A stretch of 62,846 nucleotides of DNA, the filler included, from an uncultured bacterium (GTDB lineage: Bacteria > AUK180): the NCBI GenBank assembly GCA_937863565.1. It is 8 parts of 7 records of this genome, joined end to end, with 100 filler letters (N's around TTAATTAATTAA, not from the genome) between each part and the next. Parts side by side here need not be neighbours in the genome. Positions count along the whole stretch, not along the records: positions 8,549 to 30,585 come from CALMGJ010000006.1; 7 more parts are not named here. The stretch is one strand, 5' to 3'. A program made the position numbers and the translations under genes. The notes under the pieces were generated by a model, which saw nothing but the letters and a program-made list of their open reading frames with translations, ran no database searches and was not told the DNA's origin. Below, piece by piece: positions 8,549 through 59,594 of the stretch. Positions within the stretch are counted from its first letter, which is position 1. Each line of letters begins with the position of its first letter.

Positions 8549-11500
8549 CAACGAAGGTCCTAGCCTATACTCCCCCCGATGCGCTTGAGGCCGGTACATA
8601 TAAAGTCAAAGTAAAAGCAACGAATTCTTTTGTCGGTCATGATTATACGGATATTTATGAATGGGAATTCACCGTATCGAGCGTAAAGATCTCGCTCGAA
8701 TCCGACGGCTCCTATTTTGCCGGGGACACGGGGATCGCAAGGATAAAAATAGAAAAGGTCAATTCCAAAGATACGGCCTCCTATGTCTTGAAATGGCAGA
8801 CCAAAGAAGAAAGCTGGTTCATACCCGAAAAAACAGAAAGCGAGACATTCACCCTTTCGACGCTTCCCGTCGAGGATACCTGCGCGTTCCGGATATCGAA
8901 TCATCCCCGGACAGGGGACTATGCTGCAATATTCGGACTGCATTCAGGAGAATCAAGCATATGTGATACCAGGCCTTTATCGATAAATGTTAAAAAATCG
9001 TTCGAAATAACAACCGACAGAGAATGCGAGGAAGCGAATTACAGTGTCCGGGTCACTGTTAAAAATGTTTCAGATACGATTTTAAAGAATATCGTTTTAA
9101 ATATAGACGGATGTGATAATGCCCTTGTTTCTTCCTATACAAGATCATTGACATTTCCGGAATTGAAAAAGGATGCAACCGCGAAAGGCATGATCAAATA
9201 TGTTTTGAAAAGCGAAGTGACGGACCCGGACAATATTTCGGGGAATTTCACCATACATATATCAACAAGCGCTGTTGCGGAGAAATATGCCGTTTATGAA
9301 CAGGGAACGAATTTCAATACGGCAATGAAGAACACACATTTTCAAAGTTTGACTGTAACACCAATAAAAATGGCTTGCGATCTTAAGATCGAGCGGGAAG
9401 GATCATTTTCGATAGATCTTGTGACGCACTATCAGCTTGACAATGCCACGCTGAATACCCTTAAAGGATATACTTGCACACCCCATAGAACGGAAGATAA
9501 GATGCGCGGCGGGTATATATGGACATATAAGATCAGTAAGAACTACACTCAGGGATGCACCTTTGAACTAAGTGCGAGAAATGTCATAGGCGGATTCGAT
9601 AAATGTAAAATAAACATAGGAATACTCGTACCTGATTGTGATTACAATGTTCACCAAGATATAGACGGTGACGGAATGCCTGACGGCTGGGAGGACTTAT
9701 ACGGATTGGATAAAGAGACGAACGATGCGGGAGAGGATAAGGACGGTGACGGGCTCACTAATCTTGAAGAATATACAAACGAGGCCAACCCGACCCTGGA
9801 AGATACGGATAGTGACGGATTGAATGATTATGAAGAAGTCAAGGAAACGGGAACGGAAGTTAATAATGCAGACATAGATAATGATGGATTGAACGATTGG
9901 GAGGAAGTGAACGAGGGAAAAGATGGCTATAAAACATCGCCCGATCATGCGGATAGTGATGGTGACGAAATAATGGATGGAGAAGAGGCAACTTATAAAA
10001 CCAATCCGCGGAAAAGGGATACTGATGGTGACGGCTTTACTGACTACAAAGAGATAAAAATCTGTAAAACAGACCCTCTTGATCCGAATTCACCTCCGGC
10101 TCCCCCTAAACCCGGACTGTCAATAAAAATTGAACCGTGCAAGGTATGTTATACATTAACAATAATCAAGAATTGTAATATTCCGAAGCAGTATGCTGTT
10201 TGTGTGCCGGTTGCCGGATGCAAGGCATATCCAGACGAAGGAGAATCGGGACCGTGGGAAAGTGAATATACGATCAATAACTATGACCCCGAAGCGGAGA
10301 TAGGGGTTCTTGTGAACGGTTTTGCCGTTGGCTGGATAAAGATGCTGGATAAGATGGGAAAGAAGATGCAGCTTGTCTTCCCCGAGGAATATACCGATAT
10401 CACGAAAGAGAGCGAATTCGAAGGAATGAAAGTAATTATAATCCCTTCAGGCGGATTGGGAGGGCTTGCGGGAAGCGAAATGTTCAAGAACAAACTCAAT
10501 GATTTCGTCACCAAAGGGGGAGTGATAATTGCATTGACCCAACAATGGGGCTATGAATGGAATGCTCTTCCCGTGCCATTAAGCAATGGGAATATTACTC
10601 ACAATGTGGGCGGATACGGCTGGACGGAGGACCAGGCCTGTCATCTGCAGTCCTGTTATATCGATGAATTCCATCCGGCGGTCAGCGGACTATCGGAAAG
10701 CCGGCCGAACATAAACATAGACGGATATTTCACCACATATCCCGAATACGCCAATGTGATATTAAGAAGGAGCAAGAACCTTCAGCCCGCGCTTTTGACA
10801 TATGAATGCGGGGAAGGCGCCGTGCTAGCGGGGAGTTTATACAGTGATGCGGGGATATCGATGGGACAGTATACGGAAGATGAGAGGATACTGATGCGCG
10901 ACATACTGAACTGGGCTGAAGCGGAAAGCGCGGGAAAGGAAATAGAAAGGGCCGCGCAGAATTCCGGCATAAACCTCACCCTTGATATTACAAATTACGA
11001 TCTTTTCACTGATGCGGAATTTATTGAAGTATATCTTTCCGACCCCGACGGGAACATTATCGATACAAGGACCTATCCTTTGGGATTGGGACCTGAGGAA
11101 ACGGGAAGCATAAATATCGAGTATCCCGCACAGGAAAAGACAGGCATATACAGGGTCTCATATATACATTATAACTACGATGAAGAGATAAACGAGAGGG
11201 TGATCACAGGATATGAGGATAAGTCGGGATATTTCTCTGTGGATCAGAGCCTGGAACATATACCGGATACGGGGATATCGGCATGGATCACAACACCGTC
11301 TGAAACATTGTTCGAGAACAGCACAGTGACATTCTATCTTAATATAAAGAATAATGGAAATACGCCGAGGACGATATCTGCAGTTTGGGATTGGGTACAA
11401 AGCACACCTAACGCCTATGATACCATGAGAAATCTCGGAACTTATGAGATCTTCCCCGGCCAGTCAGAGATCATACCTATAAGAAAAACGAATATACTTG

Positions 11501-21128: not shown

Positions 21129-24100
21129 ATGCCGGAAACTGAGGGCATAGTCAAGGATTATCTCAAAGAAATACAGAAGATACACAAAAAGGGAGATGCG
21201 CGGGAAGAAAGTTATTATCCTGCCCTCAAGGTCTTCCTCGAGAAGCTCGGCGACCTCAACAAAAAGAGAACGGACATCACCATCCTTCCCAGGTCCATCG
21301 AGGGGAATAATCCTGATTTCCGAATCTGGGACGGCAGACAGAAGGTCACCGGTTATGTCGAGGCGAAAGACCCGTCCGTCACCGATCTCGATACGATAGA
21401 AAGAAGCGAACAGTTAAAAAGATACAGGAACACATTCCATAACCTGATACTCACTAATTTCCATGAATTCAGATTCTACCGCGCTGGCGTCCTTATGGAT
21501 ACGGTCTTCATCGCAAGAAGAAATATTCTTCTGGACATGGGAAAGATCGTGGTAGAGAATGAGGCGGAATTCCTTGAAGCGATGGAGAGGTTCTTCGATT
21601 ACTCGATGCCGGCTATAAATTCTCCGAAAGCGCTTGCCGTAGAACTTGCCAAAAGGACGAAATTCCTAAAGGACGATATCATCGGTCATGAGATCGGGAA
21701 TAATGAAACGATAATGGCATTCTACGGGGCCTTCAGGGAATATCTGGTGCCGGACCTCTCGGAGGCGGATTTCGTCAATCTGTATTCTCAGACGATCGCC
21801 TACGGCATCTTTGCCGCACGTACACGCTCGGGGGGGGGAATTCACCCGGAAAAACGTTTACGAGAAGATTCCGAAAACGATAGGCATACTCCGCGATATC
21901 TTCAAATACATTTCTCTTGAAGAGGACAAGATGTCGCCGGCGATGGTGATGATGATAGACGATATAGCGGCCCTCCTTGCGGCTACGGATGTGAAAAAGA
22001 TTCTGGACGAATTCTATCACCAGGGAAAAGGCAGTGATCCGGTCATACACTTCTATGAGACATTCCTTGCCGAATATGACCCGAAGACAAGAGAAAAACG
22101 CGGCGTTTACTATACTCCAGAACCCGTGGTCTCTTTTATTGTCCGTTCCGTTGATCTCATATTGAAGGATAAGGAACGCTTCGATAAGAAAGACGGCCTT
22201 GCCGACGATACGGTGACGATACTCGATCCCGCGGCCGGCACTATGACATTCATCGCGGAGGCCCTCAAACTCGCCGTATCGGAATACCGCGATAAATACG
22301 GGAGCGGGAATGTGGGGAAATTCATCAAGGAACATTTCCTGAACGATGAGACAACGGATAGGATAGAGGGGAATTTCTTTGCCTTCGAACTGATGATGGC
22401 GCCCTATGTCATCGGGCATATCAAAATATCCTTCCTGCTCGAAGAACTCGGCTATACCGTTGAGGACAATGAAAGGTTCAATCTCTACCTCACCAATACG
22501 CTTGAATTCGACGAGAAAAGGGAATCCCGCCTTCCCGGCATAGTCGGCACGCTCTCCAGGGAAGCGGAGAAGGCCTACCGCGTCAAAAAGGACCAGCCGA
22601 TACTCGTCATTATGGGCAATCCTCCGTATTCTGTGAATTCCTCAAATAGTGATCCTTGGATTAAAGATTTATTAAAAGATGGAAAAACAGGATATTACAT
22701 GGTTGATGGGAAACCTCTTAAGGAGAAGAAAATATTGCTCCAAGATGATTATGTGAAATTCATACGATTCGCCCAATGGAAGATAGAACAAAGAAGTGAA
22801 GGGATTTTAGCCTTCATTACAAATCATGGTTATCTTAATAATCCAACCTTTCGAGGTATGAGACAATCATTAATAAACACTTTTGATGAGATGTATTTTC
22901 TGGATTTACATGGGAATATTGGCCGAAAGGAAAAATGCCCCGATGGTTCAAAAGATGAAAATGTTTTTGATATAAAAAGAGGTGTAGTAATTGCATTATT
23001 TATTAAAACAAAAACCGCTCCAGAGAAAAAGAAAATATTTTATTCCGAATTATGGGGATTACGTGAAAGTAAATATGAATATCTATTAATAAATGATTAT
23101 CAAACCACAAACTACAAAGAGATAACACCTAATACACCATATTACTTCTTTGTTAATCAAGATGATACTGGAAAAGATGAATTCTATTCATACCCAGGAA
23201 TAACGGATATTTTCCCCGTAAATGTAACAGGAATCGGAACATCAAGGGACTCTTTTGTAATAGATATGAATTATGATTCTTTGTTATCCCGTATGATGCA
23301 ATTTAAAGACCTAAGTATTCCCTCGAATATATTTGATGTTAAGGAAACTCCAGTTTGGCAAATAAAAAAAGCAAGAGAGAAGATGTCTAAAAAGAATGAT
23401 ATTCAAAATGATATGTGTAAAATACTATACCGTCCTTTTGATATAAGACATATATATTATTCCGATGATATTATACATAGAACTAGAGGAAATACTATGA
23501 GAGGAATGCTATCGGATAATCTTGGAATAATATCTGTTAGACAAGTAGCTGAAGGTGTATTTAATCATGCAATAATTACAGATACTATTGTTGACAGCAG
23601 AGTGACATTTAGCAGTAAGGGCACAAGTTATCTTTTTCCCCTTTATATTTACCCGGATGAAATATCCCGTCAAGATAGTTTGCATAGCAATAATAATGGG
23701 AAAAGAGTAAATATCAATACTCGGCTCTATGAACAACTGAAGGCCACATACAAAAAAGACATCACACCGGAAGAGATACTTTACTATATCTACGGTGTGC
23801 TTTATTCAGATACATACCGCGATAAATATAGAGAATTATTAAAAATAAATTTTCCACGGATACCCTTTACGGAGGATTACAATACTTTTATAAAGATAGG
23901 CGAACTGGGAAAAGAACTTGCCGATCTCCACCTCCTGAAATCCCCCGTTCTGGATGAACCCGTTTCCAAATACGAGGGCGCGGGGAATAATCTGGTGGAG
24001 TATGTGAAATACGATCCGGAAGGAAAGAGGATATTTATAAACGGAGCCCAGCATTTCACCAATATCAGCCCCGAGGTCCACTCGTATATGATAGGCGGTT

Positions 24101-24258
24101 ATCAGGTCTCAGAGAAATGGCTCAAGGACAGAAAAGGCCGCCTCCTCTCCTCAGAAGAGATCAAAACCTATTGCCGGATAATCACGGCCTTAGCGAATAC
24201 ACATTCTATTCAAAATGAAATAGAGGATGTATTTAACAATACTCGGGGGGTAAAATAA
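21129..24258 (+). pseudogene. Single-chain restriction-modification enzyme (nuclease + N6-adenine methyltransferase + type ISP-like specificity domain), frameshifted at a G9 tract
   Basis: ORFs 21129..21920 (PDF...YVEAK) and 21811..24258 (GVYYTP, LDPAAG, GNPPY) join into 1042 aa if G9 at 21830-21838 becomes G8. Confidence 0.88.
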
Positions 24259-25518
24259 ATGTCGAAAAACAAAGATTTTAAATCATTTTTAGATAGTAAC
24301 AAAAGCGTTAAATATATCGAAGATAGTCAGTTTATAAAACTAATTAATCTATGGGAGGACACCTCTTTTGATATTATTATTAAAAAGGGCACCAATCTCA
24401 ACTCTTTTAGGGATATCATTTTATTTAAAGAACTTATAGCAATATTTCACAATAATGAAAATCAACAAAAAATAGAATTTATTTTTAGCTTACTTCCAGA
24501 AACTGAAAACTATATTAATAGGAAGACAACATATGTCTATGAAAATCATGAATATAAAACATATTTCTCTGAACCAAGTGAAGCATTAAGAATTCTAGCT
24601 ACTGGATTTCGGGAGAAGGATATTCCCGGAGATTCATACTATAGAAATTTAAGAATATTTAGAGATTATTATCATAGTGATAAAGCCCCTGATTATATTC
24701 AAGAATTTTTTAAAGATAAAATCCCAATATCGTATTATATTGAAGGCAGTTTTGAAGTAGATAGTTCGAAGCTCATTAAGTTATGCAAACACATTAATTT
24801 TTTCAATAAGTACTATCATAGAAAAAGTCCCAGTATTGTTATAATTGAAGAAGAAGACAATACTGAAGAGAATAAAGTACCATGTCTTTTTATAAATGAA
24901 AATAAATTCCCAGAAATTATCTCTATTTATCGAGAGATAGATCCAATTCCCCTTGAGTTATTTTTAGCGGCAGATGCAAACATTCATACTCGACAAAGAT
25001 TTCTCTTTTATTACCAAATACTTGAATATTATGCATACTATTTCTATCGGAATGTAATAAAAGATGATTTGCAAACAGTAATATATGATGTTAAAGTTAT
25101 GGGGAATATTGATGAATTAATTAAAAGGATTATCGAAATTGCTAATAAAATAAATAGTAAACAAGATCTTCAAAAGATGAAAGAATTAGTATCATCTGCA
25201 TGTAAAATAGATGATATAATGAGCGAATTAAATCTTTATACAGAGTATTTTAGTAAGGATGTAACATTTGAGGGAGGATTTTGTATAGATCACTCTAGTA
25301 TAAAAAAGAACATTGATAGTTGTGACAAAAATACCATAGATTCAATATTATCAGTAATTGACAAAATAAGAAATGCGCTTGTTCATGTAAGAGAAAAAAG
25401 AGAAAAAGATATAATACTACCTACTAAAAGTAATGATAGTAAATTAAAGCCATATGTATTTCTTATTAGACGAATTGCAGAGAAAGTGGTTTTGATGAGT
25501 CAAACACATCTAATCTAA
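24259..25518 (+). CDS. AT-rich hypothetical protein with C-terminal HEPN-like RxxxxH motif
   Basis: FLFYYQILEY and IRNALVH motifs; abuts the R-M stop codon. Confidence 0.6.
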   Translation: MSKNKDFKSFLDSNKSVKYIEDSQFIKLINLWEDTSFDIIIKKGTNLNSFRDIILFKELIAIFHNNENQQKIEFIFSLLPETENYINRKTTYVYENHEYKTYFSEPSEALRILATGFREKDIPGDSYYRNLRIFRDYYHSDKAPDYIQEFFKDKIPISYYIEGSFEVDSSKLIKLCKHINFFNKYYHRKSPSIVIIEEEDNTEENKVPCLFINENKFPEIISIYREIDPIPLELFLAADANIHTRQRFLFYYQILEYYAYYFYRNVIKDDLQTVIYDVKVMGNIDELIKRIIEIANKINSKQDLQKMKELVSSACKIDDIMSELNLYTEYFSKDVTFEGGFCIDHSSIKKNIDSCDKNTIDSILSVIDKIRNALVHVREKREKDIILPTKSNDSKLKPYVFLIRRIAEKVVLMSQTHLI

Positions 25519-25632
25519 AACTATGTATAGCAATTTCATAAATACTCATCAGGAGTTATTTGGTATACTTTACGAGAGTATTGGGAATAATGTTATTATT
25601 AGAATACTTTTTATCATTATTATTATAGATAA

Positions 25633-26172
25633 ATGATCGAATCAAGATATTGGAAAAGTGATTTATTAAAGCATGCAAAAGATCTGCAACCGAAAAAGAA
25701 TCCAGCTCGTATGACAGAGAAAATGATATATGAGTTTGAAAAACGATTAATTATATCTTTCTTCATTGTTCGTAAGATGCTGGAATCAGATAAAATCTCT
25801 AATAATATAAAGAGATATCGAGCAAAAATATATGAGTATAAAAGTAAGAGGATGATTAATAAGCTCAATGTTCATTCTATTGAAAAGAATTATGATCTTT
25901 ATAATGAGATAACGATATCAAGGGATATTAAATTTATTTCAAATCAATTCATTCACAGTAGTACGATATGGAGTTCGAGAATTAGTAAAAGAAATAGAAA
26001 TTGGAGTGATATATATTTATGTTCGGATTATGAGAAAACAAAAGCTTTATATCGTATTCCTATTGAAGAAATAATTAAAATATTTAATTTGGTTGGGAAT
26101 GATTATCCAACACATACTATACAAAGTAGGTGGAATGAGAAAACTAATGATTATGAAATTGAACAGGAATAA
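25633..26172 (+). CDS. AT-rich hypothetical protein, possibly divergent HEPN-like
   Basis: 179-aa ORF with SNQFIHS motif; low GC. Confidence 0.55.
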   Translation: MIESRYWKSDLLKHAKDLQPKKNPARMTEKMIYEFEKRLIISFFIVRKMLESDKISNNIKRYRAKIYEYKSKRMINKLNVHSIEKNYDLYNEITISRDIKFISNQFIHSSTIWSSRISKRNRNWSDIYLCSDYEKTKALYRIPIEEIIKIFNLVGNDYPTHTIQSRWNEKTNDYEIEQE

Positions 26173-26187
26173 AATTGGAGAGGTTAT

Positions 26188-26598
26188 ATGATGGAGCCAT
26201 TTCAAGTTATCTATAATCATCAAATAACAGTCCTTGATAGTAAAAACAAACAAATATATGGGACATTAAAGGGAACTCCTACTAAGAAAGTAATAAAAGA
26301 ACTACTTATAGTTATATTTGAAAAATATCATGTTCAATATCTCTTGATAAAAAGAATAAGAGATAAATATCCATTATTATGTTGGTCAAATAGTAGTGTA
26401 GAAACACTAAATATATTTCAATTGGCAGAATACAGCGCCTCCGAGAAAATGAAACATAAAAAACCTGAAATAAAGGTAAGGCGTTGTAAAAAAACGGAAT
26501 TAGAAGATATATCAGGTTTTTATAAAAGGAAAGAACTGGAGCTTTATTTATATTTTAAATGTGGAGGAGCGGCAAAGAAATATGCTAAAAGAATCTAA
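26188..26598 (+). CDS. AT-rich hypothetical protein
   Basis: 136-aa ORF with GGAGAGG RBS. Confidence 0.5.
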   Translation: MMEPFQVIYNHQITVLDSKNKQIYGTLKGTPTKKVIKELLIVIFEKYHVQYLLIKRIRDKYPLLCWSNSSVETLNIFQLAEYSASEKMKHKKPEIKVRRCKKTELEDISGFYKRKELELYLYFKCGGAAKKYAKRI

Positions 26599-26818
26599 GT
26601 GTATAACAATATACAAATACAATCACTTCGACATTAATAAAATAGGAAAGTATGATAACAAAACAGGTCCTACTTCAATTTCGTATGCAATCCTGCCCCG
26701 CCCTCTCCTTTTTTTTGACATCAGCCAAATATCGGTATAGAATTGGGCGGCGGCAAAATGTTATCGCAGATTTCCCAATATATGGTGAAAAAATCAAGCA
26801 TTGAGCACGAAGAAATTA

Positions 26819-27658
26819 TTATTTAAGATATTGCCGGATCTTTTCGAAGGCCGTTTCGTCCACGCCGGCCTTGCCGAGGGCGGCGTCGGGTTTGATGCTC
26901 AGGCCGTGGAAGTCGGACCCGCCGGAGACGAGAAGGCCGTGCTTCTCGCACAGATCGAGAAGATATTTTGTCTCTTCGGGGGAATGTTTAGGGTAATATG
27001 CTTCCAGGCCATCCACTCCTTCGCCGACGATCTCATCGATCAGCTTAAGGATATCTTCCTTTTCTCTTCTTATTAAAAACGGATGTGCGAGGAATATGAG
27101 GCAATTGAACTCTGAGTGCGCTCTTTTTATTAGCTCTTTGAAGTGTATCCTTTCCTTGGGCATATAAAGCGGTTTTCCGTAGTCGAGGTATTTCGAAAAG
27201 GCCTCTTCACGGTCTTTGACCGCGCCCGTGTGAACAAGATAGGCGGCAAGATGCGGCCTGCCCGGAGCGGAATCGTTCACGAAATCACTGAAAAGAACTT
27301 CTTTATCTACCGCAACCCCGATCTCATTGGCCTTATCGGCCGCTTTAATAAGGGATTCGCGTCGAGTGCGCCTCTGCCCTTCAAGAAAATCCCGGAGGGC
27401 ATTGTTCTGCCAGGTGCGCATATAGGCGGTGAAATGCATATTTGATATATCGGTGGCGAATTCCACTCCGAGAAGGATATCAAGATCGCAGAGATTCGCG
27501 AATTCCTCTTCTTCTTTAGAACCCACGGTATCGTGATCGGTAATGGCGAAACCGGAGAGTCCGGCGGCGCGCGCCATTGCGGCTATCTCCGGGATGGTGT
27601 TCTCGCCGTCGGAATTTTTCGTATGAACATGAAGATCGTAACTTGCAATTTGTTCCAT
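26819..27658 (-). CDS. PHP-domain phosphoesterase (TrpH/YciV-like)
   Basis: DLHVHTKNSDG, ITDHDT, GRPHLA, AHP and GGSDFHG motifs. Confidence 0.93.
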   Translation of the reverse strand: MEQIASYDLHVHTKNSDGENTIPEIAAMARAAGLSGFAITDHDTVGSKEEEEFANLCDLDILLGVEFATDISNMHFTAYMRTWQNNALRDFLEGQRRTRRESLIKAADKANEIGVAVDKEVLFSDFVNDSAPGRPHLAAYLVHTGAVKDREEAFSKYLDYGKPLYMPKERIHFKELIKRAHSEFNCLIFLAHPFLIRREKEDILKLIDEIVGEGVDGLEAYYPKHSPEETKYLLDLCEKHGLLVSGGSDFHGLSIKPDAALGKAGVDETAFEKIRQYLK

Positions 27659-27690
27659 AATTTATTTTATCATAAGAGGGGGGAAAATAC

Positions 27691-27844
27691 AATGGAGAAT
27701 TGAGAATGGAGAATTGAGAATGGAGAGTTGAGAATGGAGAATTGAGAATTGACAATGGAGAATTGAGAATTGACAATGGAGAATGGAGAATTGAGAATTG
27801 ATAATTGAGAATGGAGAATTGACAATTGAGAATGGGCAATGGAG
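27691..27844 (+). repeat. 22 tandem copies of heptamer AAT(G/T)GA(G/C/T)
   Basis: Counted directly in unbroken 7-bp phase: aatggag aattgag aatggag ... aatgggc aatggag. Confidence 0.97.
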
Positions 27845-27898
27845 AAATAGGAATTTGGAAAAAGATTATTATAAGATATAATAAGAAGGAGGGTTTAG

Positions 27899-28240
27899 AT
27901 GAAAAGAAACATAGTATATGAAAAGGCATTTGATTTTGCGCTTAAGGTAATAAAATTATATAAAACAATGATCGAAAAAAATGAATATGTGCTTTCAAAG
28001 CAAGTACTCCGTTCGGCAACAAGCATTGGTGCTAATATAAAAGAGGCTTTAAACGCACAGAGCAGGAAGGATTTTTTATCGAAGATGAATATCGCTTTGA
28101 AAGAATCATCGGAAACGGTTTATTGGCTTGAATTATTATTAGCTTCCGGGTACTTGAAAACTAAGGAACTATTAAATGATTGCGATGAAATAAATAAAAT
28201 GCTGGCAAGCATTGTAAAAAAGGTGAAAAAAACACTTTAA
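27899..28240 (+). CDS. Four helix bundle protein (23S rRNA IVP/TIGR02436-like, Avd-related fold)
   Basis: EKAFDFAL...LSKQVLRSATSIGANIKEA...DFLSKMNIALKESSETVYWLELL. Confidence 0.92.
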   Translation: MKRNIVYEKAFDFALKVIKLYKTMIEKNEYVLSKQVLRSATSIGANIKEALNAQSRKDFLSKMNIALKESSETVYWLELLLASGYLKTKELLNDCDEINKMLASIVKKVKKTL

Positions 28241-28242
28241 AT

Positions 28243-28331
28243 AATTGACAATTGAGAAATGATAATGGAGAATTGAGAATGGAGAATTGAGAATTACAAA
28301 AGTGGCTGGAGGTTGGAGGTTGGAGGATAGG
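28243..28331 (+). repeat. Seven AATKGAG-type heptamers (28243-28291) followed by four GGNT(G/A)GA-type heptamers (28304-28331)
   Basis: aattgac aattgag aaatgat aatggag aattgag aatggag aattgag; ggctgga ggttgga ggttgga ggatagg. Confidence 0.93.
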
Positions 28332-28434
28332 GGGTGAAGAGAATAATAAATGAAGAAAGGTAAAAGAGACTGGAGATTTGAAATATATTATAAAAAGAGA
28401 TATAAATAGCAAAGAAATAATTGGGAGGAGATTT

Positions 28435-28803
28435 ATGAGTATTGAAGATCTGAAAGTTATAGAGGCGATAAATGCTCTTGTAAAGGACATTTATAAAGTG
28501 ACATTGAAATATCCGAAAAATGAGGAATTCGGGCTGATCTCACAAATGAGAAGAGCAGCAATTTCAATCGGGTCTAATCTGATGGAGGGTAATTACAGAG
28601 GTTCCACAAAAGATTATGTGCATTTCATAGATATCGCAAAAGGTTCAGCTGCCGAATTAAAATACCAACTATTGATCTCAAAGGAATTGAAATACATATC
28701 CGAAAAGGAACAGGAAATATTGGATAAGAAAATTGAAGAAATAATAAAGACGCTAAGCAGTATTAAGAGGGCGTTGAAGAAGAAGCTGGAGGATAAAGGA
28801 TAG
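28435..28803 (+). CDS. Four helix bundle protein (23S rRNA IVP-like), second and divergent paralogue
   Basis: EDLKV...IYKVTLKYPKNEEFGLISQMRRAAISIGSNLMEG...FIDIAKGSAAELKYQL; ATG 28435 behind GGGAGGAG. Confidence 0.92.
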   Translation: MSIEDLKVIEAINALVKDIYKVTLKYPKNEEFGLISQMRRAAISIGSNLMEGNYRGSTKDYVHFIDIAKGSAAELKYQLLISKELKYISEKEQEILDKKIEEIIKTLSSIKRALKKKLEDKG

Positions 28804-29291
28804 AGGATGGAGGATAAGGGCGAGACGCAGTGAATAGTGAACAGCAGAGCGGCAGAGCCGCGGTGTGGAGTGTGGAGTACGGAGTGTGGAGTGGGAAAGA
28901 AAGACAATGGAGAAATACAATAGAGGCTGGAGGATGGAGGTTAGAGGATGGGGAAAGAAAAGTGTGGAGCGGGGCAGTGAAGCAATGCAGTGCAGAGTGT
29001 CGAGTACCGAGTGCCGAGTGGGATGAGGATAAATAATCCTACCTTCACTATTGCACTAAGCACTTTGCACTATGCACTAAACAAGCGAAGTGCCGTGTGG
29101 AGCAGAGCGGCAGAGCCGCGGTGTGGAGTGTGGAGTACGGAGTGTGGAGTTAATAATAAAAATACAATTGCTCAGTTATCCGGTTAACGAGTTGGCGGGT
29201 GACCGTCTGCGAGTTAACGAGTTTAAAAAAGTGAATAACGAATAGTGAGAAGTGAATAATGAAAAGTGAGGACTAGGAATGGATAATTGAG
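28784..29291 (+). repeat. Mosaic of short heptamer tracts from at least five families, plus a 50-bp internal duplication and a GTTAACGA-hairpin element
   Basis: GGATRGA (28784-28818, ~28921-28952), GTGAAYA (28830, 29231-29272), GAGTGTG (28861, 29119), GTGCCGA (28990-29017), inverted TGCACTA (29051-29078); 28843-28892 is identical to 29101-29150. Confidence 0.9.
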
Positions 29292-29337
29292 AATTTATGA
29301 ATGCCGGTATTTATTAATACACTATTAACTGAATATA

Positions 29338-29787
29338 TTAAAGGGATTTAAGCAGGGATTCCATTGCTGAAAGAAAATCACCGGCGGCATCAAGTGAATT
29401 TCGCACCTCATCTTCTGTTGAGATATAACTCAGATCGTATTGTCCATGATGGCGCAATTCTCTGTTGTGGTCCAAGATATCCACCCATTTTTGATCGAGT
29501 TTTCCGGTAGAGACATATTTTCTTTCAAGAAACCGGGCAATGCAGGCATGGCTCTTTTCACGATAACCTTCGAAGAACAGCAATGCTCTTCCGGCATGGA
29601 ACATTACCATATATGAAGCATGCAATGAGGAGTTGAACGCCTTTGCGCGTAATGATGCCTCGGCTTCAACGGCCCATTCTTTGGCTTTTTCAATGGATTG
29701 AAAAGCCCTCTCCCGTGAAGGCGGGATCTTTCTCAGCAGATTGAGCCTTAAACATTCCTCGAAATCAAAGGACATCATTCTCTCCAT
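29338..29787 (-). CDS. HEPN domain protein (toxin-like partner of MNT)
   Basis: SYMVMFHAGRALLF, KSHAC and RELRHHGQYD motifs. Confidence 0.85.
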   Translation of the reverse strand: MERMMSFDFEECLRLNLLRKIPPSRERAFQSIEKAKEWAVEAEASLRAKAFNSSLHASYMVMFHAGRALLFFEGYREKSHACIARFLERKYVSTGKLDQKWVDILDHNRELRHHGQYDLSYISTEDEVRNSLDAAGDFLSAMESLLKSL

Positions 29788-30298
29788 AGAGCATAATGGA
29801 ACCGAAAGAGAGGGCGTGATAGAAAAGCGGATCTTCTTTTTTTATTTTTTCAATTTTATCGGCTGTCAGAAGTAAGATCTTCACATTTCTGATCTTCTTT
29901 CTGAGCCGGGCGGACAAAGAAGCCAGATCCGCTTCAGGGGCTTTATTTATATAAAGCCAGATATCTGTGTCGGAACTTTCCGTGTTTTCGCCTTTTGCAC
30001 AACTCCCGAAAAGCCCGGCCGCTCTTATGAACTTATATTTTCCGAAAATAGAAGTATCTATCGAAATAATGTTCAGCATAATCTTCAGTGATCTTGTAAT
30101 ATGGGAATTATTCGCTATGTATTTACTCCGGACCCTTTTCAGCACATTTTTTACGGAAAGGAGTTCTAAATATTTAGATACGAAACTTTTACTTATACCG
30201 AGAGCATTTGCAATGCCGGTTACGCAAAAAGCATCTTCCTTGAATATGACTGCTTGAAGCACCTTTTCCCTTTCCCTGCTTGACAGTATCTCTCTCAT
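29765..30298 (-). CDS. Winged-HTH plus minimal nucleotidyltransferase (MNT) antitoxin
   Basis: N-terminal HTH (IANALGISKSFVSKYL); LFGSCAKGENTESSDTDIW GSx10DxD motif. Confidence 0.88.
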   Translation of the reverse strand: MREILSSREREKVLQAVIFKEDAFCVTGIANALGISKSFVSKYLELLSVKNVLKRVRSKYIANNSHITRSLKIMLNIISIDTSIFGKYKFIRAAGLFGSCAKGENTESSDTDIWLYINKAPEADLASLSARLRKKIRNVKILLLTADKIEKIKKEDPLFYHALSFGSIMLYGENDVL

Positions 30299-30467
30299 CT
30301 GCAGTCCTCCAAAAAAGTTCTCAAATCATGAACAAAATGTTCGCGAATTGTGAATAAAGTGTTCGTGTATTGAATATACGGATGAAATAATGACCCATTA
30401 ATAAATAAATTGCATAACCCGGTATTCATAAGTAATTATAGCATATTCTTAAGGGAAATACAAGAAA

Positions 30468-30585
30468 AATAGAGGATGGAGGTTTGAGGGTGGAGGATGG
30501 GGAAAGAAAAGTATGGAGTGTGGAGTACGAAGTGTGGAGTTAATAATAAAAATACAATTGCTCAGTTATCCGGTTAACGAGTTGG
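30468..30585 (+). repeat. Second copy of the composite repeat block, at a contig end
   Basis: 30511-30585 matches 29121-29195 with 2 mismatches; 30468-30517 resembles ~28919-28969. Confidence 0.9.
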
Positions 30586-30685
30586 NNNNNNNNNNNNNNN
30601 NNNNNNNNNNNNNNNNNNNNNNNNNNNNNTTAATTAATTAANNNNNNNNNNNNNNNNNNNNNNNNNNNNNNNNNNNNNNNNNNNN

Positions 30686-46767: not shown

Positions 46768-47087
46768 GAAGCCAACTGCTTGGCTTCTGTCGGGATTCGA
46801 AAGGCGCAGTTATGTCTTTAGACAAACGAGCCGGGGTCGCGAAAACGGCAAGCAAAGCGAACTGTTATTCGTGACCGCTAAATCCCTCTTGTCCGCGTAT
46901 GCGCGGATAAGAGCAACCGGCCTCTCCGTATCCAATGAGGCATTGGATCGAAGCCAGAAATTCAAATTAATAGTTAATAGTGAATAGTGAATAGTTGATA
47001 TTGAGGAATAGTCAGTAGTGAACTGCGAAGATCGGCGAGCCGGGGTCGCGAGCGATGCGGAGCATCGACTTGAGACCGTTAGATCTC
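46768..47087. other. Hairpin-dense non-coding region with two copies of a GAGCCGGGGTCGCGA structured motif separated by heptamer repeats
   Basis: Motif at 46828-46842 and 47037-47051; hairpins at 46768-46787, 46886-46913, 46930-46948 and 47053-47067; (T/G)AATAGT-type heptamers at 46967-46995. Confidence 0.7.
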
Positions 47088-59423: not shown

Positions 59424-59594
59424 GCTTCGCTTTATTATTCAGTTAACGAATTGGCGGTGGACCGCCCGTGAGTTAACGAGTTATTAAAATTATCATTCCT
59501 TATTTAAACCCGTTAACCGGATAACTGAGCAATTGTATTTTTATTATTAACTCCACACTTCGTACTCCACACTCCACACCGCGGCTCTGCCGCT
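59424..59594. repeat. GTTAACGA-hairpin element plus an inverted copy of the 84-bp composite repeat block, at a contig end
   Basis: 59511-59594 is the reverse complement of 29106-29189 with 1 mismatch. Confidence 0.92.

Follow-up and report, generated by a model that had tools for sequence, protein, structure and literature searches.

This locus raises the question of whether two neighbouring genes for small four-helix-bundle proteins, each lying between arrays of a seven-nucleotide repeat, form private units of a protein and its cognate repeat, as was proposed in an earlier note made from the sequence alone. The genes lie on contig CALMGJ010000006.1 of an uncultured bacterium (GCA_937863565.1, GTDB lineage AUK180), and all positions are given along the window, the whole stretch of 62,846 nucleotides (filler included) that was analysed. 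The answer is that gene 1 and gene 2 do not form private pairs of protein and repeat but are unusual copies of a cassette about which little has been written; what is new at the locus is the direct orientation of their repeat arms.

Gene 1 (27899–28240, + strand) encodes a full-length, 113-residue four-helix-bundle protein of the PF05635/TIGR02436 family and is preceded by array A (27691–27846, + strand), which spans 156 nt and contains 22 units of AATKGAG. Sixteen units match AATKGAG exactly in a single register, and the other six differ from it by 1–2 nt (AGTTGAG, AATTGAC three times, AATTGAT and AATGGGC). TRF scores for this array are 200–221 at periods 14, 21 and 28, and its super-unit is 14 nt long (AATGGAG-AATTGAG). 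A promoter-like site, TTGGAA-16-TATAAT (27855–27882, + strand; 10 of 12 positions, a match to consensus only), is located between the array and the gene, and AAGGAGG is found 7 nt ahead of the ATG. The TAA of gene 1 ends at 28240, and array A resumes at 28243 and runs to 28295 (+ strand; 7.6 units, 5 of them exact), with the orientation and 14-nt super-unit of the upstream copy.

After a gap of 8 nt, the upstream array B (28304–28331, + strand) reads GGCTGGA, GGTTGGA, GGTTGGA and GGATAGG, of which three units are exact matches to GGNTRGA; TRF reports it as TGGAGGT repeated 2.9 times with 100% matches. Gene 2 (28435–28803, + strand) encodes a 122-residue four-helix-bundle protein of the same family, and its open frame extends back to a TTG at 28378. 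The downstream array B (28784–28818, + strand) comprises about four GGAGGAT-like units, two of them exact GGNTRGA, and is weak (TRF score 35–42, 80–85% matches); it encodes the final codons of gene 2 (...LEDKG) and its TAG. Tandem arrays with units of ~7 nt therefore lie no more than 250 nt from either end of each ORF, with the same unit family on each side. The purine-rich strand is the + (coding) strand in all four, and the arrays of gene 2 are short and weak. This anatomy, already described in the earlier note, was confirmed by sequence, TRF and pattern search. Truncation of the C-termini by the arrays was considered and rejected, as both protein lengths fall within the range of their relatives.

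The upstream array A comes from a draft assembly in which contigs frequently terminate in arrays of this kind. At 156 nt it exceeds the usual short-read length, and 26 of 114 tracts in the genome lack a flanking gene before the contig end, so a chimeric or collapsed join at this array is possible. A read is longer than the 53-nt downstream array A or either B array, and these three are thus unlikely to be assembly artefacts.

Both genes are intact members of PF05635/TIGR02436. Gene 1 scores 116.8 bits against TIGR02436 (cut-off 24) and 106.7 bits against PF05635 (cut-off 33.8), and gene 2 scores 111.6 and 121.3 bits respectively against the same cut-offs. The family is very large and has been an orphan for 30 years, with no function assigned to our knowledge; a copy is present in 61 of 151 genomes of a domain-wide sample. 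By sequence, gene 1 resembles PDB 2rld (an uncharacterized protein, E = 3e-33) and gene 2 resembles PDB 2gsc (XCC0516 from Xanthomonas campestris, E = 1.7e-18), both of which are structural-genomics entries without assigned function and with five chains deposited in each. In the accessible text of PMC4990558, the X. campestris family protein is described as a homopentamer. The family is also homologous to Avd, the nucleic-acid-binding protein of diversity-generating retroelements (DGRs), which has a homologous four-helix-bundle fold and represents a basic, oligomeric, nucleic-acid-binding family (PMC10053308, accessible text). The Avd models NF033474 and PF22296 match gene 2 below their cut-offs (43.3 against 80 and 33.9 against 40) and leave gene 1 unmatched. 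A search of the genome, which is 95.5% complete, found no reverse transcriptase (PF00078), and a DGR context was rejected on that ground.

Arrays of this kind are widespread in the genome. With one window setting and one threshold, 81 tracts of period 7 and 46 of period 14 (twice 7) were counted, compared with 0–17 for each remaining period between 5 and 13, which places period 7 far above chance across the genome. Cyanobacterial STRRs are dispersed heptamer-type repeats, and such an excess of intergenic 7-nt arrays over other periods is a feature that STRR-like arrays and this genome have in common. At a looser threshold there are 114 heptamer tracts, 96 of them intergenic, and same-family neighbouring tracts form 35 direct and 3 inverted pairs. 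Between co-directional genes, 32 of 39 tracts are purine-rich on the sense strand; the coincidence of purine-rich and coding strands, which the earlier note recorded for both genes, is thus a property of the arrays in general.

The array families include AGAGTTG, AGTGAAC, AGTGTGR, AATKGAG, AGAGGTT and AATGAAG, together with an AATGAAA-type family of 18 tracts. Arrays of AATKGAS are found at 11 further sites on 7 other contigs, and arrays of RGAGGNT at 19 further sites on 12 other contigs, with two more in the locus itself; at none of the sites on other contigs is there a PF05635 gene beside them. Instead, the same families adjoin TPR genes (some lying between two of them), leuS, dnaA and other genes, so the idea that each gene has its own repeat family is true only locally. 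Clusters that mix several array families are common in other intergenic regions, and the switch of repeat between gene 1 and gene 2, recorded in the earlier note, is an example of this ordinary mosaic. On contig C12, for example, three unrelated genes are separated by AATTGAG, AATGGAC and AATGAAC arrays in direct orientation, and many contigs terminate in arrays. The arrays are general to this genome and unstable.

The repeats are therefore not private to the genes, but their association with the protein holds across the family, and the link between PF05635 genes and 7-nt arrays is real and general. It was measured in 26 loci from 8 sister genomes, 24 domain-wide loci (23 of which represent as many other bacterial families) and 80 metagenome loci, by comparing tract density within 250 nt of the PF05635 gene with that more than 400 nt away as an internal control. 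The near and far densities of period-7 tracts are 2.90 and 0.26 per kb in the sister genomes (the phylum sample), 1.82 and 0.31 per kb domain-wide and 3.73 and 0.18 per kb in the metagenome loci, a 6–20-fold enrichment overall. Within the genome, periodic arrays flank both sides of all four PF05635 genes, and period-7 bracketing is found for three of these four but for only 4 of 1972 other crude genes (Fisher p = 1e-7). The exception is the copy on contig C16, whose arrays have a period of 8, and no two of the four paralogues share an arm family (AATKGAG, GGAGGWT, AGTGTGR and the octamer GTTAACGG).

The co-segregation of protein and heptamer anticipated in the earlier note is also observed, since heptamer distance increases with protein distance (Mantel r = 0.30, 0 of 2000 permutations), although linkage and descent alone would suffice to produce it. 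Proteins up to 25% distant share the same heptamer, and at 25–40% protein distance just 32% of pairs are within one heptamer mismatch; the nearest relatives of gene 1 (L031–L035, 61–64% identity) bear other units. The arms around gene 1 relatives have a median of 4.7 units (IQR 3.7–5.2; 139 tracts, with a detection floor of 3 units), and in the close relatives L074, L078 and L080 the copy numbers are 8, 12 and 18 units.

The arms of PF05635 cassettes are usually inverted, a normal design that was missed in the earlier note. Inverted arms are present at 61 of 74 usable metagenome loci, 15 of 22 usable domain-wide loci and 12 of 24 usable sister-genome loci, as well as at both other copies in the genome (contigs C37 and C16). 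Among 63 two-sided loci, the upstream heptamer is the reverse complement of the downstream heptamer, with 0–1 mismatch, in 45, compared with 11% of mismatched locus pairs. In the fold of the C37 cassette the arms form the stem that closes it (z = −5.17; 0 of 100 shuffles as good), and the octamer arms of the C16 copy are, by eye, near reverse complements. A family design of inverted, complementary arms points to nucleic-acid pairing rather than to a sequence specified by the protein.

At gene 1 and gene 2 the arms are direct. Arm alignments score 83 (direct) versus 18 (inverted) for gene 1 and 62 versus 14 for gene 2, where the 99th percentile of shuffles is 25.95, and the corresponding unit distances are 0 versus 3 and 2 versus 5. 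No inverted arms were found in 27600–30590, and RNA folds of the gene 1 and gene 2 cassettes (z = −1.43 and +0.61) contain no arm-arm stem; with both arm pairs direct, no stem can form around either gene. Direct-only or direct-dominant flanks are found elsewhere at 7 of 74 metagenome, 3 of 24 sister-genome and 3 of 22 domain-wide loci, several of them with the form A-A'-gene-A'. An automatic test detected no arm signal at 7 of 24 sister-genome and 4 of 22 domain-wide loci.

The surroundings are also rich in repeats, and the locus is a patchwork of arrays in a variable island that includes a type IIG restriction enzyme, orphan ORFs and a HEPN/nucleotidyltransferase pair. The divergent left neighbour of array A is a gene for a PHP-domain phosphoesterase (PF02811; 26819–27658, − strand), with weak matches, under the cut-offs, to RNase RNM and nucleoside bisphosphate phosphatase. 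Its orthologues are present in all 8 sister genomes (32–49% identity), with different neighbours in every one. In one relative, L122, heptamer arrays are also located 5' of the PHP gene and a PF05635 gene is absent within 1.5 kb.

To the right of gene 2 is a gene-less mosaic of arrays (28826–29270, + strand) made up of AGTGAAT, GTGTGGA (four units), a copy of array B, AGTGCCG, CACTATG and AAAAGTG; the four-unit GTGTGGA array occurs at 28863–28893 and 29121–29150, and array B recurs at 28919–28951. A gene-less hairpin suspected within 28975–29079 was dropped, as the fold of 28820–29160 is no better than that of shuffled sequences (z = −0.68). The HEPN/nucleotidyltransferase pair (29338–30298, − strand; HEPN 29338–29787, nucleotidyltransferase 29765–30298) is itself flanked by direct composite array repeats, namely D3 (28919–28974 and 30468–30523, 86% identical) and D4 (29121–29195 and 30511–30585, 97% identical). 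The second copy of the composite (30468–30585, + strand) consists of array B, the GTGTGGA array and 45 nt of unique sequence, and ends with the contig at 30585. Unlike in an integron or transposon cassette, no recombinase or transposase family was found (Pfam, NCBIfam) among the eight ORFs of 24259–30298; as the contig stops at 30585, such a gene could lie beyond it. Searches for known RNA families gave no Rfam match in 26000–30585 at E ≤ 1, and PADLOC gave a defence-family match for neither gene 1 nor gene 2.

The closest known system is the ORF-bearing intervening sequence (IVS) of 23S rRNA, which in Coxiella burnetii is located in helix 45 and carries S23p, and which also occurs in Leptospira; the Coxiella IVS ends in a 28-bp stem that RNase III cuts, and its S23p ORF is preceded by tandem GACAGAT heptamers in numbers that differ from strain to strain (PMC4990558, accessible text). 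The ORF family (PF05635) is the same, copy-variable tandem heptamers lie directly 5' of the Coxiella ORF (PMC4990558), and, among the relatives of both genes and at the two further copies in this genome, complementary terminal arms close a stem around the ORF. In contrast to the IVS (helix 45 or 25), genes 1 and 2 are outside an rRNA gene, as the absence of Rfam matches around them indicates, and the sole LSU rRNA match in the genome (contig C19:747–3715) is 2969 nt long against a model of 2925 positions and therefore has no large insert. The genes also differ from the IVS in that their direct arms make an RNase III stem impossible and in that each has promoter-like and Shine-Dalgarno sequences. 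In the openly accessible literature searched, a printed link between the protein family and heptamer repeats was not found; the Coxiella paper alone notes heptamers beside the S23p ORF.

On balance, and with some reserve, we favour the explanation that these are two heptamer-armed PF05635 cassettes whose arms were recombined or homogenised within an array-rich variable island, giving an atypical, derived state. In the usual packaging of the family, a short ORF has tandem arrays of ~7 nt on either side, and these arms, in the usual reverse-complementary form, can close a long stem around the ORF resembling the stem of the 23S rRNA IVS that is cut by RNase III. Gene and arms are inherited as one and are probably also moved as one, and by analogy with the IVS the stem may act as RNA via RNase III, a gene for which is present in the genome. 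At this locus, array slippage together with recombination or gene conversion between arrays may have put copies of the upstream arrays in place of the complementary arms, and may also have expanded array A to 22 units. In the unit AATTGAC found in relatives, a single base lies outside the 6-nt palindrome CAATTG; inverted arms built from it therefore also match as direct repeats at 6/7 positions, and this near-palindromic character would make arm conversion easy for family A. The space between the upstream array and the ATG of each gene is enough for a promoter and a ribosome-binding site of its own, and the two genes may be expressed independently.

Some observations sit uneasily with a derived state. 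Family B (GGAGGTT) is not palindromic, and the easy route open to family A is inapplicable to gene 2. Both genes are intact with the same family on each side, so the direct state could be functional and selected, and direct flanks recur at low frequency elsewhere.

A rather unlikely alternative is that each oligomer recognises, in RNA or single-stranded DNA, the heptamers that flank its own gene, with one unit per subunit, in which case it might also act in trans on arrays of the same family, the hairpin would be non-essential and direct-arm loci would be functional. The shared heptamers of proteins up to 25% distant and the wider correlation (r = 0.30) are as expected from such recognition, as are the four arm families of the four paralogues; however, linkage and common descent alone predict a correlation, because kin share labels, and the heptamers turn over much faster than the protein (the 32% of pairs noted above), and the nearest relatives of gene 1 use other units. 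A median of 4.7 units per arm would suit the five chains of 2rld and 2gsc and the homopentamer described for X. campestris (PMC4990558, accessible text), but that statistic has a floor of three units. Arrays that are mostly on the sense strand could be read as RNA, and the homology to Avd (PMC10053308, accessible text) is with a nucleic-acid-binding protein; against this, the family-wide complementarity of the arms means that a 'cognate' strand is presented by one arm only, and the AATGAAA-type family has no paralogue bearing such arms in the 95.5% complete assembly. It is also possible, though unlikely, that the arrays are recombination or insertion sites, with cassettes entering and leaving pre-existing arrays without a dedicated transposase, so that the direct bracket of 22 and 7.6 units would be one array split by insertion and the HEPN/nucleotidyltransferase pair another cassette. 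Both A arrays share orientation and super-unit, as the halves of one array would, the pair forms a third module within direct repeats 86–97% identical, gene-less arrays of the same families are common, and the lack of a recombinase family among the ORFs of 24259–30298 is in keeping with the idea. Nevertheless, duplication or conversion after insertion would equally yield direct repeats, and insertion into a single array does not predict the dominant inverted-arm design. The C37 cassette lies between two FtsX-type permease genes, and homologous pairs in G001 and G007 are 14–22 nt apart and cassette-free, but the permeases compared are 44–46% identical and their orthology is uncertain; for the present locus an empty-site allele was not found, the PHP-gene neighbours differing in all 8 relatives.

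The absence of any functional link, with generic, slippage-born intergenic heptamers of the STRR type accumulating in non-essential DNA, or with misassembly, is very doubtful. In its favour are the 114 tracts genome-wide, beside housekeeping and unrelated genes, the usual mosaic clusters, the contigs that end in arrays and the three unrelated genes of C12. Dispersed heptamers are also described elsewhere without a noted gene link, as GGGAATC in Xanthomonas and GGGGA(C/T)T in Nostoc/Anabaena (PMC4692102) and as TAACTGA in marine Beggiatoaceae (PMC4679880); the terms '23S' and 'helix bundle' are absent from the accessible text of the former, and '23S', 'four helix', 'S23' and 'intervening' from that of the latter. 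They resemble the arrays described here in being numerous, intergenic, variable in copy number and short in units, with some convergent (inverted) pairs, but here the units are different and belong to several related families, the sense strand is mostly the purine-rich one, and there is a tie to PF05635 genes. Generic slippage does not account for the strong enrichment at PF05635 genes in this genome (3/4 versus 4/1972) and in the three independent, internally controlled samples, nor for the flanking of both genes by one family each, as the cassette rule predicts.

The PF05635 family and heptamer arrays are thus physically coupled well beyond rRNA intervening sequences, with arms that co-vary and stay complementary, which connects an orphan protein family with the dispersed heptamer repeats that are a long-standing oddity of bacterial genomes. 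We consider it quite unlikely that the proteins are sequence-specific heptamer readers, in which a TRAP-like oligomeric ring would bind one 7-nt unit per subunit, both in the repeat family of its own flanks and, in trans, in the dozens of sense-strand arrays of that family within intergenic RNA. If this were true, bacterial heptamer repeats and the orphan family would form one post-transcriptional (or DNA-level) system, and direct-arm loci would show the repeat itself, and not the hairpin, to be the functional element. The locus provides a natural control, as it contains two intact genes with the right arm family in the wrong orientation: if the hairpin is needed, genes 1 and 2 should differ from the inverted-arm copies on C37 and C16, and if the repeat alone is sufficient, they should behave alike.

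Positions 8549–30585 of the window make up one contig (C6; C-numbers denote contigs of the source genome) of a 2.27-Mb draft genome of 38 contigs. It carries two small genes whose proteins are clear PF05635/TIGR02436 members by profile matches and resemble PDB 2rld/2gsc, gene 1 (27899–28240, plus strand, 113 aa) and gene 2 (28435–28803, plus strand, 122 aa); comparison with relatives ruled out C-terminal truncation of either protein. Upstream of gene 1, array A (27691–27846, plus strand) consists of 22 units of 7 nt, 16 of them exact AATKGAG and six near variants, with a 14-nt super-unit, AATGGAG-AATTGAG. The 52-nt spacer between this array and gene 1 contains a TTGGAA-16-TATAAT match and AAGGAGG, and 7.6 further family A units (28243–28295, plus strand) begin 2 bases past the gene 1 stop. 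Eight bases after array A ends, the unit becomes GGYTGGA in the upstream array B (28304–28331, plus strand), whilst the 3' end of gene 2 lies inside a weak downstream array B (28784–28818, plus strand) of about four GGAGGAT-like units, which encodes its last codons and TAG. The coding strand is purine-rich in every array flanking the two genes, the arrays are mutually direct, and no inverted repeats were found in 27600–30590. Sequence, tandem-repeat and pattern searches bore out the earlier note's description of this locus base for base.

Similar arrays are widespread in the genome. With one scan width and threshold, 81 tandem tracts of period 7 were found, 46 of period 14, and 0–17 for the remaining periods between 5 and 13. 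A looser threshold gave 114 period-7 tracts genome-wide, 96 of which are mostly intergenic and 26 of which are positioned where the flanking gene is missing before the contig end. These tracts belong to a few related families, have a median of four units, and adjoin ordinary genes, including dnaA, leuS and genes for TPR proteins, FKBP isomerase, Fic and ABC transporters. On C12, direct AATTGAG, AATKGAC and AATGAAN arrays separate three unrelated genes (two TPR, one without a family match). Between co-directional genes the sense strand is purine-rich in 32 of 39 tracts (binomial p = 7e-5, overstated since tracts are clustered), and of the same-family neighbours no more than 700 nt apart, 35 pairs are direct and 3 inverted, one higher-order repeat on C15 inflating the direct figure. 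A ~182-nt higher-order repeat there (C15:1–500, locus L114) is built from three array families (AACTNTC, TCATTNT, CTCAATT) and is repeated at least twice where the contig begins; a Fic-domain gene lies downstream. In a sister genome of the phylum, a PHP-gene orthologue (L122, G005 C121) has AGTGTGA and GGTACGA arrays about 50–220 nt from its start and no PF05635 gene within 1.5 kb.

Family A (at least two AATKGAS units in a row) has 13 sites, two around gene 1 and 11 on seven other contigs; family B (at least two RGAGGNT units) has 23, two around gene 2, two more in the locus and 19 on 12 other contigs. Apart from the pairs that flank genes 1 and 2, no site of either family lies next to a PF05635 gene. 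The proposal that each gene has a private heptamer family is therefore contradicted. Because of this genome-wide survey, the purine-rich coding strand, the family switch and the direct orientation are to be regarded as general array properties: the strand bias and the switch noted between genes 1 and 2 are both present, but the former is no locus-specific trait and the latter is seen in other intergenic regions of the genome too.

The link of the PF05635 gene family to heptamer arrays is NEVERTHELESS real. Of 1976 crude genes, seven have period-7 tracts no more than 120 nt away at either end, and these seven include three of the four PF05635 genes in the genome (Fisher p = 1e-7). The fourth (C16:9930–10500, L016/L155) has inverted octamer arms, GTTAACGG three times upstream and CTCGTTAA twice downstream, the downstream unit approximating the reverse complement of the upstream one; arm unit length is thus not strictly 7. 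This gene lies between a TGS-domain GTPase gene and a gene following V-type ATPase subunit D. As an internal control, stretches up to 250 nt from PF05635 genes were compared in tract density with those beyond 400 nt at the same loci, the source genome's loci being omitted; the density was 2.90 versus 0.26 per kb at 26 loci of eight other genomes of the phylum, 1.82 versus 0.31 at 24 loci of a domain-wide sample, and 3.73 versus 0.18 at 80 metagenome loci. The last encode gene 1 relatives (52–64% identical) and include some duplicates (98 proteins past filters of at least one tract and at least 95 aa, 89 distinct). At one sister-genome locus (L014/L025, G005 C124), a tandem partial duplication repeats a PF05635 5' fragment and its AGTGTGA arm before the full gene.

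The normal design of these cassettes is inverted arms, the arms being the arrays on both sides of the gene. The 250 nt upstream were aligned to the 250 nt downstream in direct and reverse-complement orientation, a match being a score at or above the 99th percentile of shuffled flanks (25.95) with a lead of 6 over the other orientation. Among 74 usable metagenome loci (the flanks of the other 6 out of 80 being short), 61 were inverted, 7 direct, 2 both and 4 neither; the 24 usable sister-genome loci gave 12, 3, 2 and 7, and the domain-wide loci, which represent 22 bacterial families, gave 15 inverted, 3 direct and 4 neither (22 usable, one of 23 having no flank). Where tracts flank the gene on either side (63 loci), comparing the upstream consensus heptamer with its downstream counterpart, reverse-complemented, gave no mismatch at 27 loci and one at 18; for arms paired from different loci, 11% came within 0–1 mismatch. 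The heptamer varies by locus (AATTGAC, AGTGGAT, AATTCGG, AGTTCAT, AATGCTA and others), so the arms co-vary, which argues for pairing or concerted copying. The source genome's cassette on C37 (86318–86787, L027/L154) has a minimum-energy fold (z = −5.17) closed by a stem of its AGTGTGR arms. A paper on the Coxiella 23S rRNA intervening sequence (IVS) describes the same anatomy, with an S23p ORF preceded by tandem GACAGAT heptamers of strain-dependent copy number and a 28-bp terminal stem that RNase III cuts (PMC4990558); an RNase III gene is present in the source genome. At C12:3004–3352 and C17:22664–22938, arrays of one family form an inverted pair without a gene, separated by 304 and 217 nt of other arrays; both are candidate empty or remnant hairpins.

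Genes 1 and 2 are exceptions, with direct versus inverted arm scores of 83 versus 18 and 62 versus 14; of the 102 usable loci of the metagenome, sister-genome and source-genome set, these two favour the direct orientation most strongly. Folding the RNA of either cassette produced no stem between its arms (z = −1.43 and +0.61). Further direct cases are often A-A'-gene-A', as in L031 (gene 1's closest relative), L034 and L018/L024, a layout that makes two alternative pairings possible; genes 1 and 2, unlike these, have no complementary array at all. The variant recurs as A-A'-gene-A' or A-A'-gene-A (L031, L034, L018/L024/L130, L066), in which a short gene-less array hairpin precedes the gene and one of the arms appears again behind it.

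The earlier note also expected heptamer sequence to co-segregate with the protein, and it does: a Mantel test gave r = 0.30 (0 of 2000 permutations), proteins up to 25% apart have identical heptamers, and pairs within one mismatch make up 32% at 25–40% distance versus 4% above 70%. Such co-segregation would be expected from linked DNA anyway, and gene 1's closest relatives bear other units whilst AATKGAG recurs in the more distant L051, L102, L105 and L026. There are hints that the four-helix-bundle protein may bind its own flanking repeat, in that it has pentameric relatives and the median arm length is 4.7 units, but the arms are complementary to each other and heptamer turnover is fast. The candidate insertion or excision of cassettes at repeats has indirect support. 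The C37 cassette directly precedes an FtsX/MacB-type permease gene, a position also occupied in G003 and G004 (another genus), and homologous permease pairs in G001 and G007 stand 14–22 nt apart without a cassette. At the locus itself a third module, a HEPN/nucleotidyltransferase pair (29338–30298, minus strand), is likewise bracketed by direct arrays.

The arrays bracketing this pair are composite repeats (28919–29195 and 30468–30585, 86–97% identical) of a GGAGGWT array, a GTGTGGA array and 45 nt of unique sequence; the right copy lacks ~146 nt found in the left, as if deleted between two GTGTGGAG stretches, and C6 terminates inside it. The other contigs in the window likewise carry heptamer arrays at or close to their ends (2281–2539, 46967–47004, 59550–59579), and the assembly evidently breaks at arrays. 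Genes 1 and 2 are located in a variable region that also takes in the HEPN/nucleotidyltransferase pair, adjoined by an apparent low-GC variable or defence island (21811–26598) with a type IIG restriction-modification gene (21811–24258, PADLOC E = 4e-201) and, 3' of it, three ORFs (419, 179 and 136 aa) without a Pfam, NCBIfam or PADLOC match. An rRNA-gene location of the two genes was ruled out (Rfam search of the region; a single 23S gene without a large insert), as was membership of a DGR, no reverse transcriptase being found in the genome.

Since the same unit family stands on both sides of gene 1 and of gene 2, as is the rule in these cassettes, the arrays are taken to be the cassettes' own arms rather than a chance mosaic, and their inverted orientation has probably been lost. 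Arm copy number changes rapidly, judging by the upstream AATGCTA arm, whose approximately 8, 12 and 18 units in L074, L078 and L080 (close relatives from different metagenomes) are a direct sign of it, and by the strain-to-strain variation of the Coxiella heptamers. In family A relatives, the units AATTGAC upstream and AATTGTC downstream each amount to a CAATTG palindrome with one base added; inverted family A arms are thus 6/7-identical as direct repeats too, and conversion or unequal exchange between them would give a downstream copy of the upstream super-unit, as seen. Family B is not palindromic, so this step does not account for it. Arms in direct orientation would form no stem; genes 1 and 2 are probably transcribed from their own putative promoters, and gene 1, with direct repeats 435–540 nt apart, is predicted to be deletion-prone.

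An IVS with an ORF (PMC4990558), dispersed bacterial heptamer repeats (PMC4692102, PMC4679880) and the Avd homology of the family (PMC10053308) are already in print; no published link of free-standing PF05635 genes to heptamer arms was found, most subscription journals lying outside the coverage. What is new is that two intact PF05635 copies have direct arms, and that arrays of these families occur throughout the source genome as a general feature of its intergenic DNA, oriented with the sense strand.
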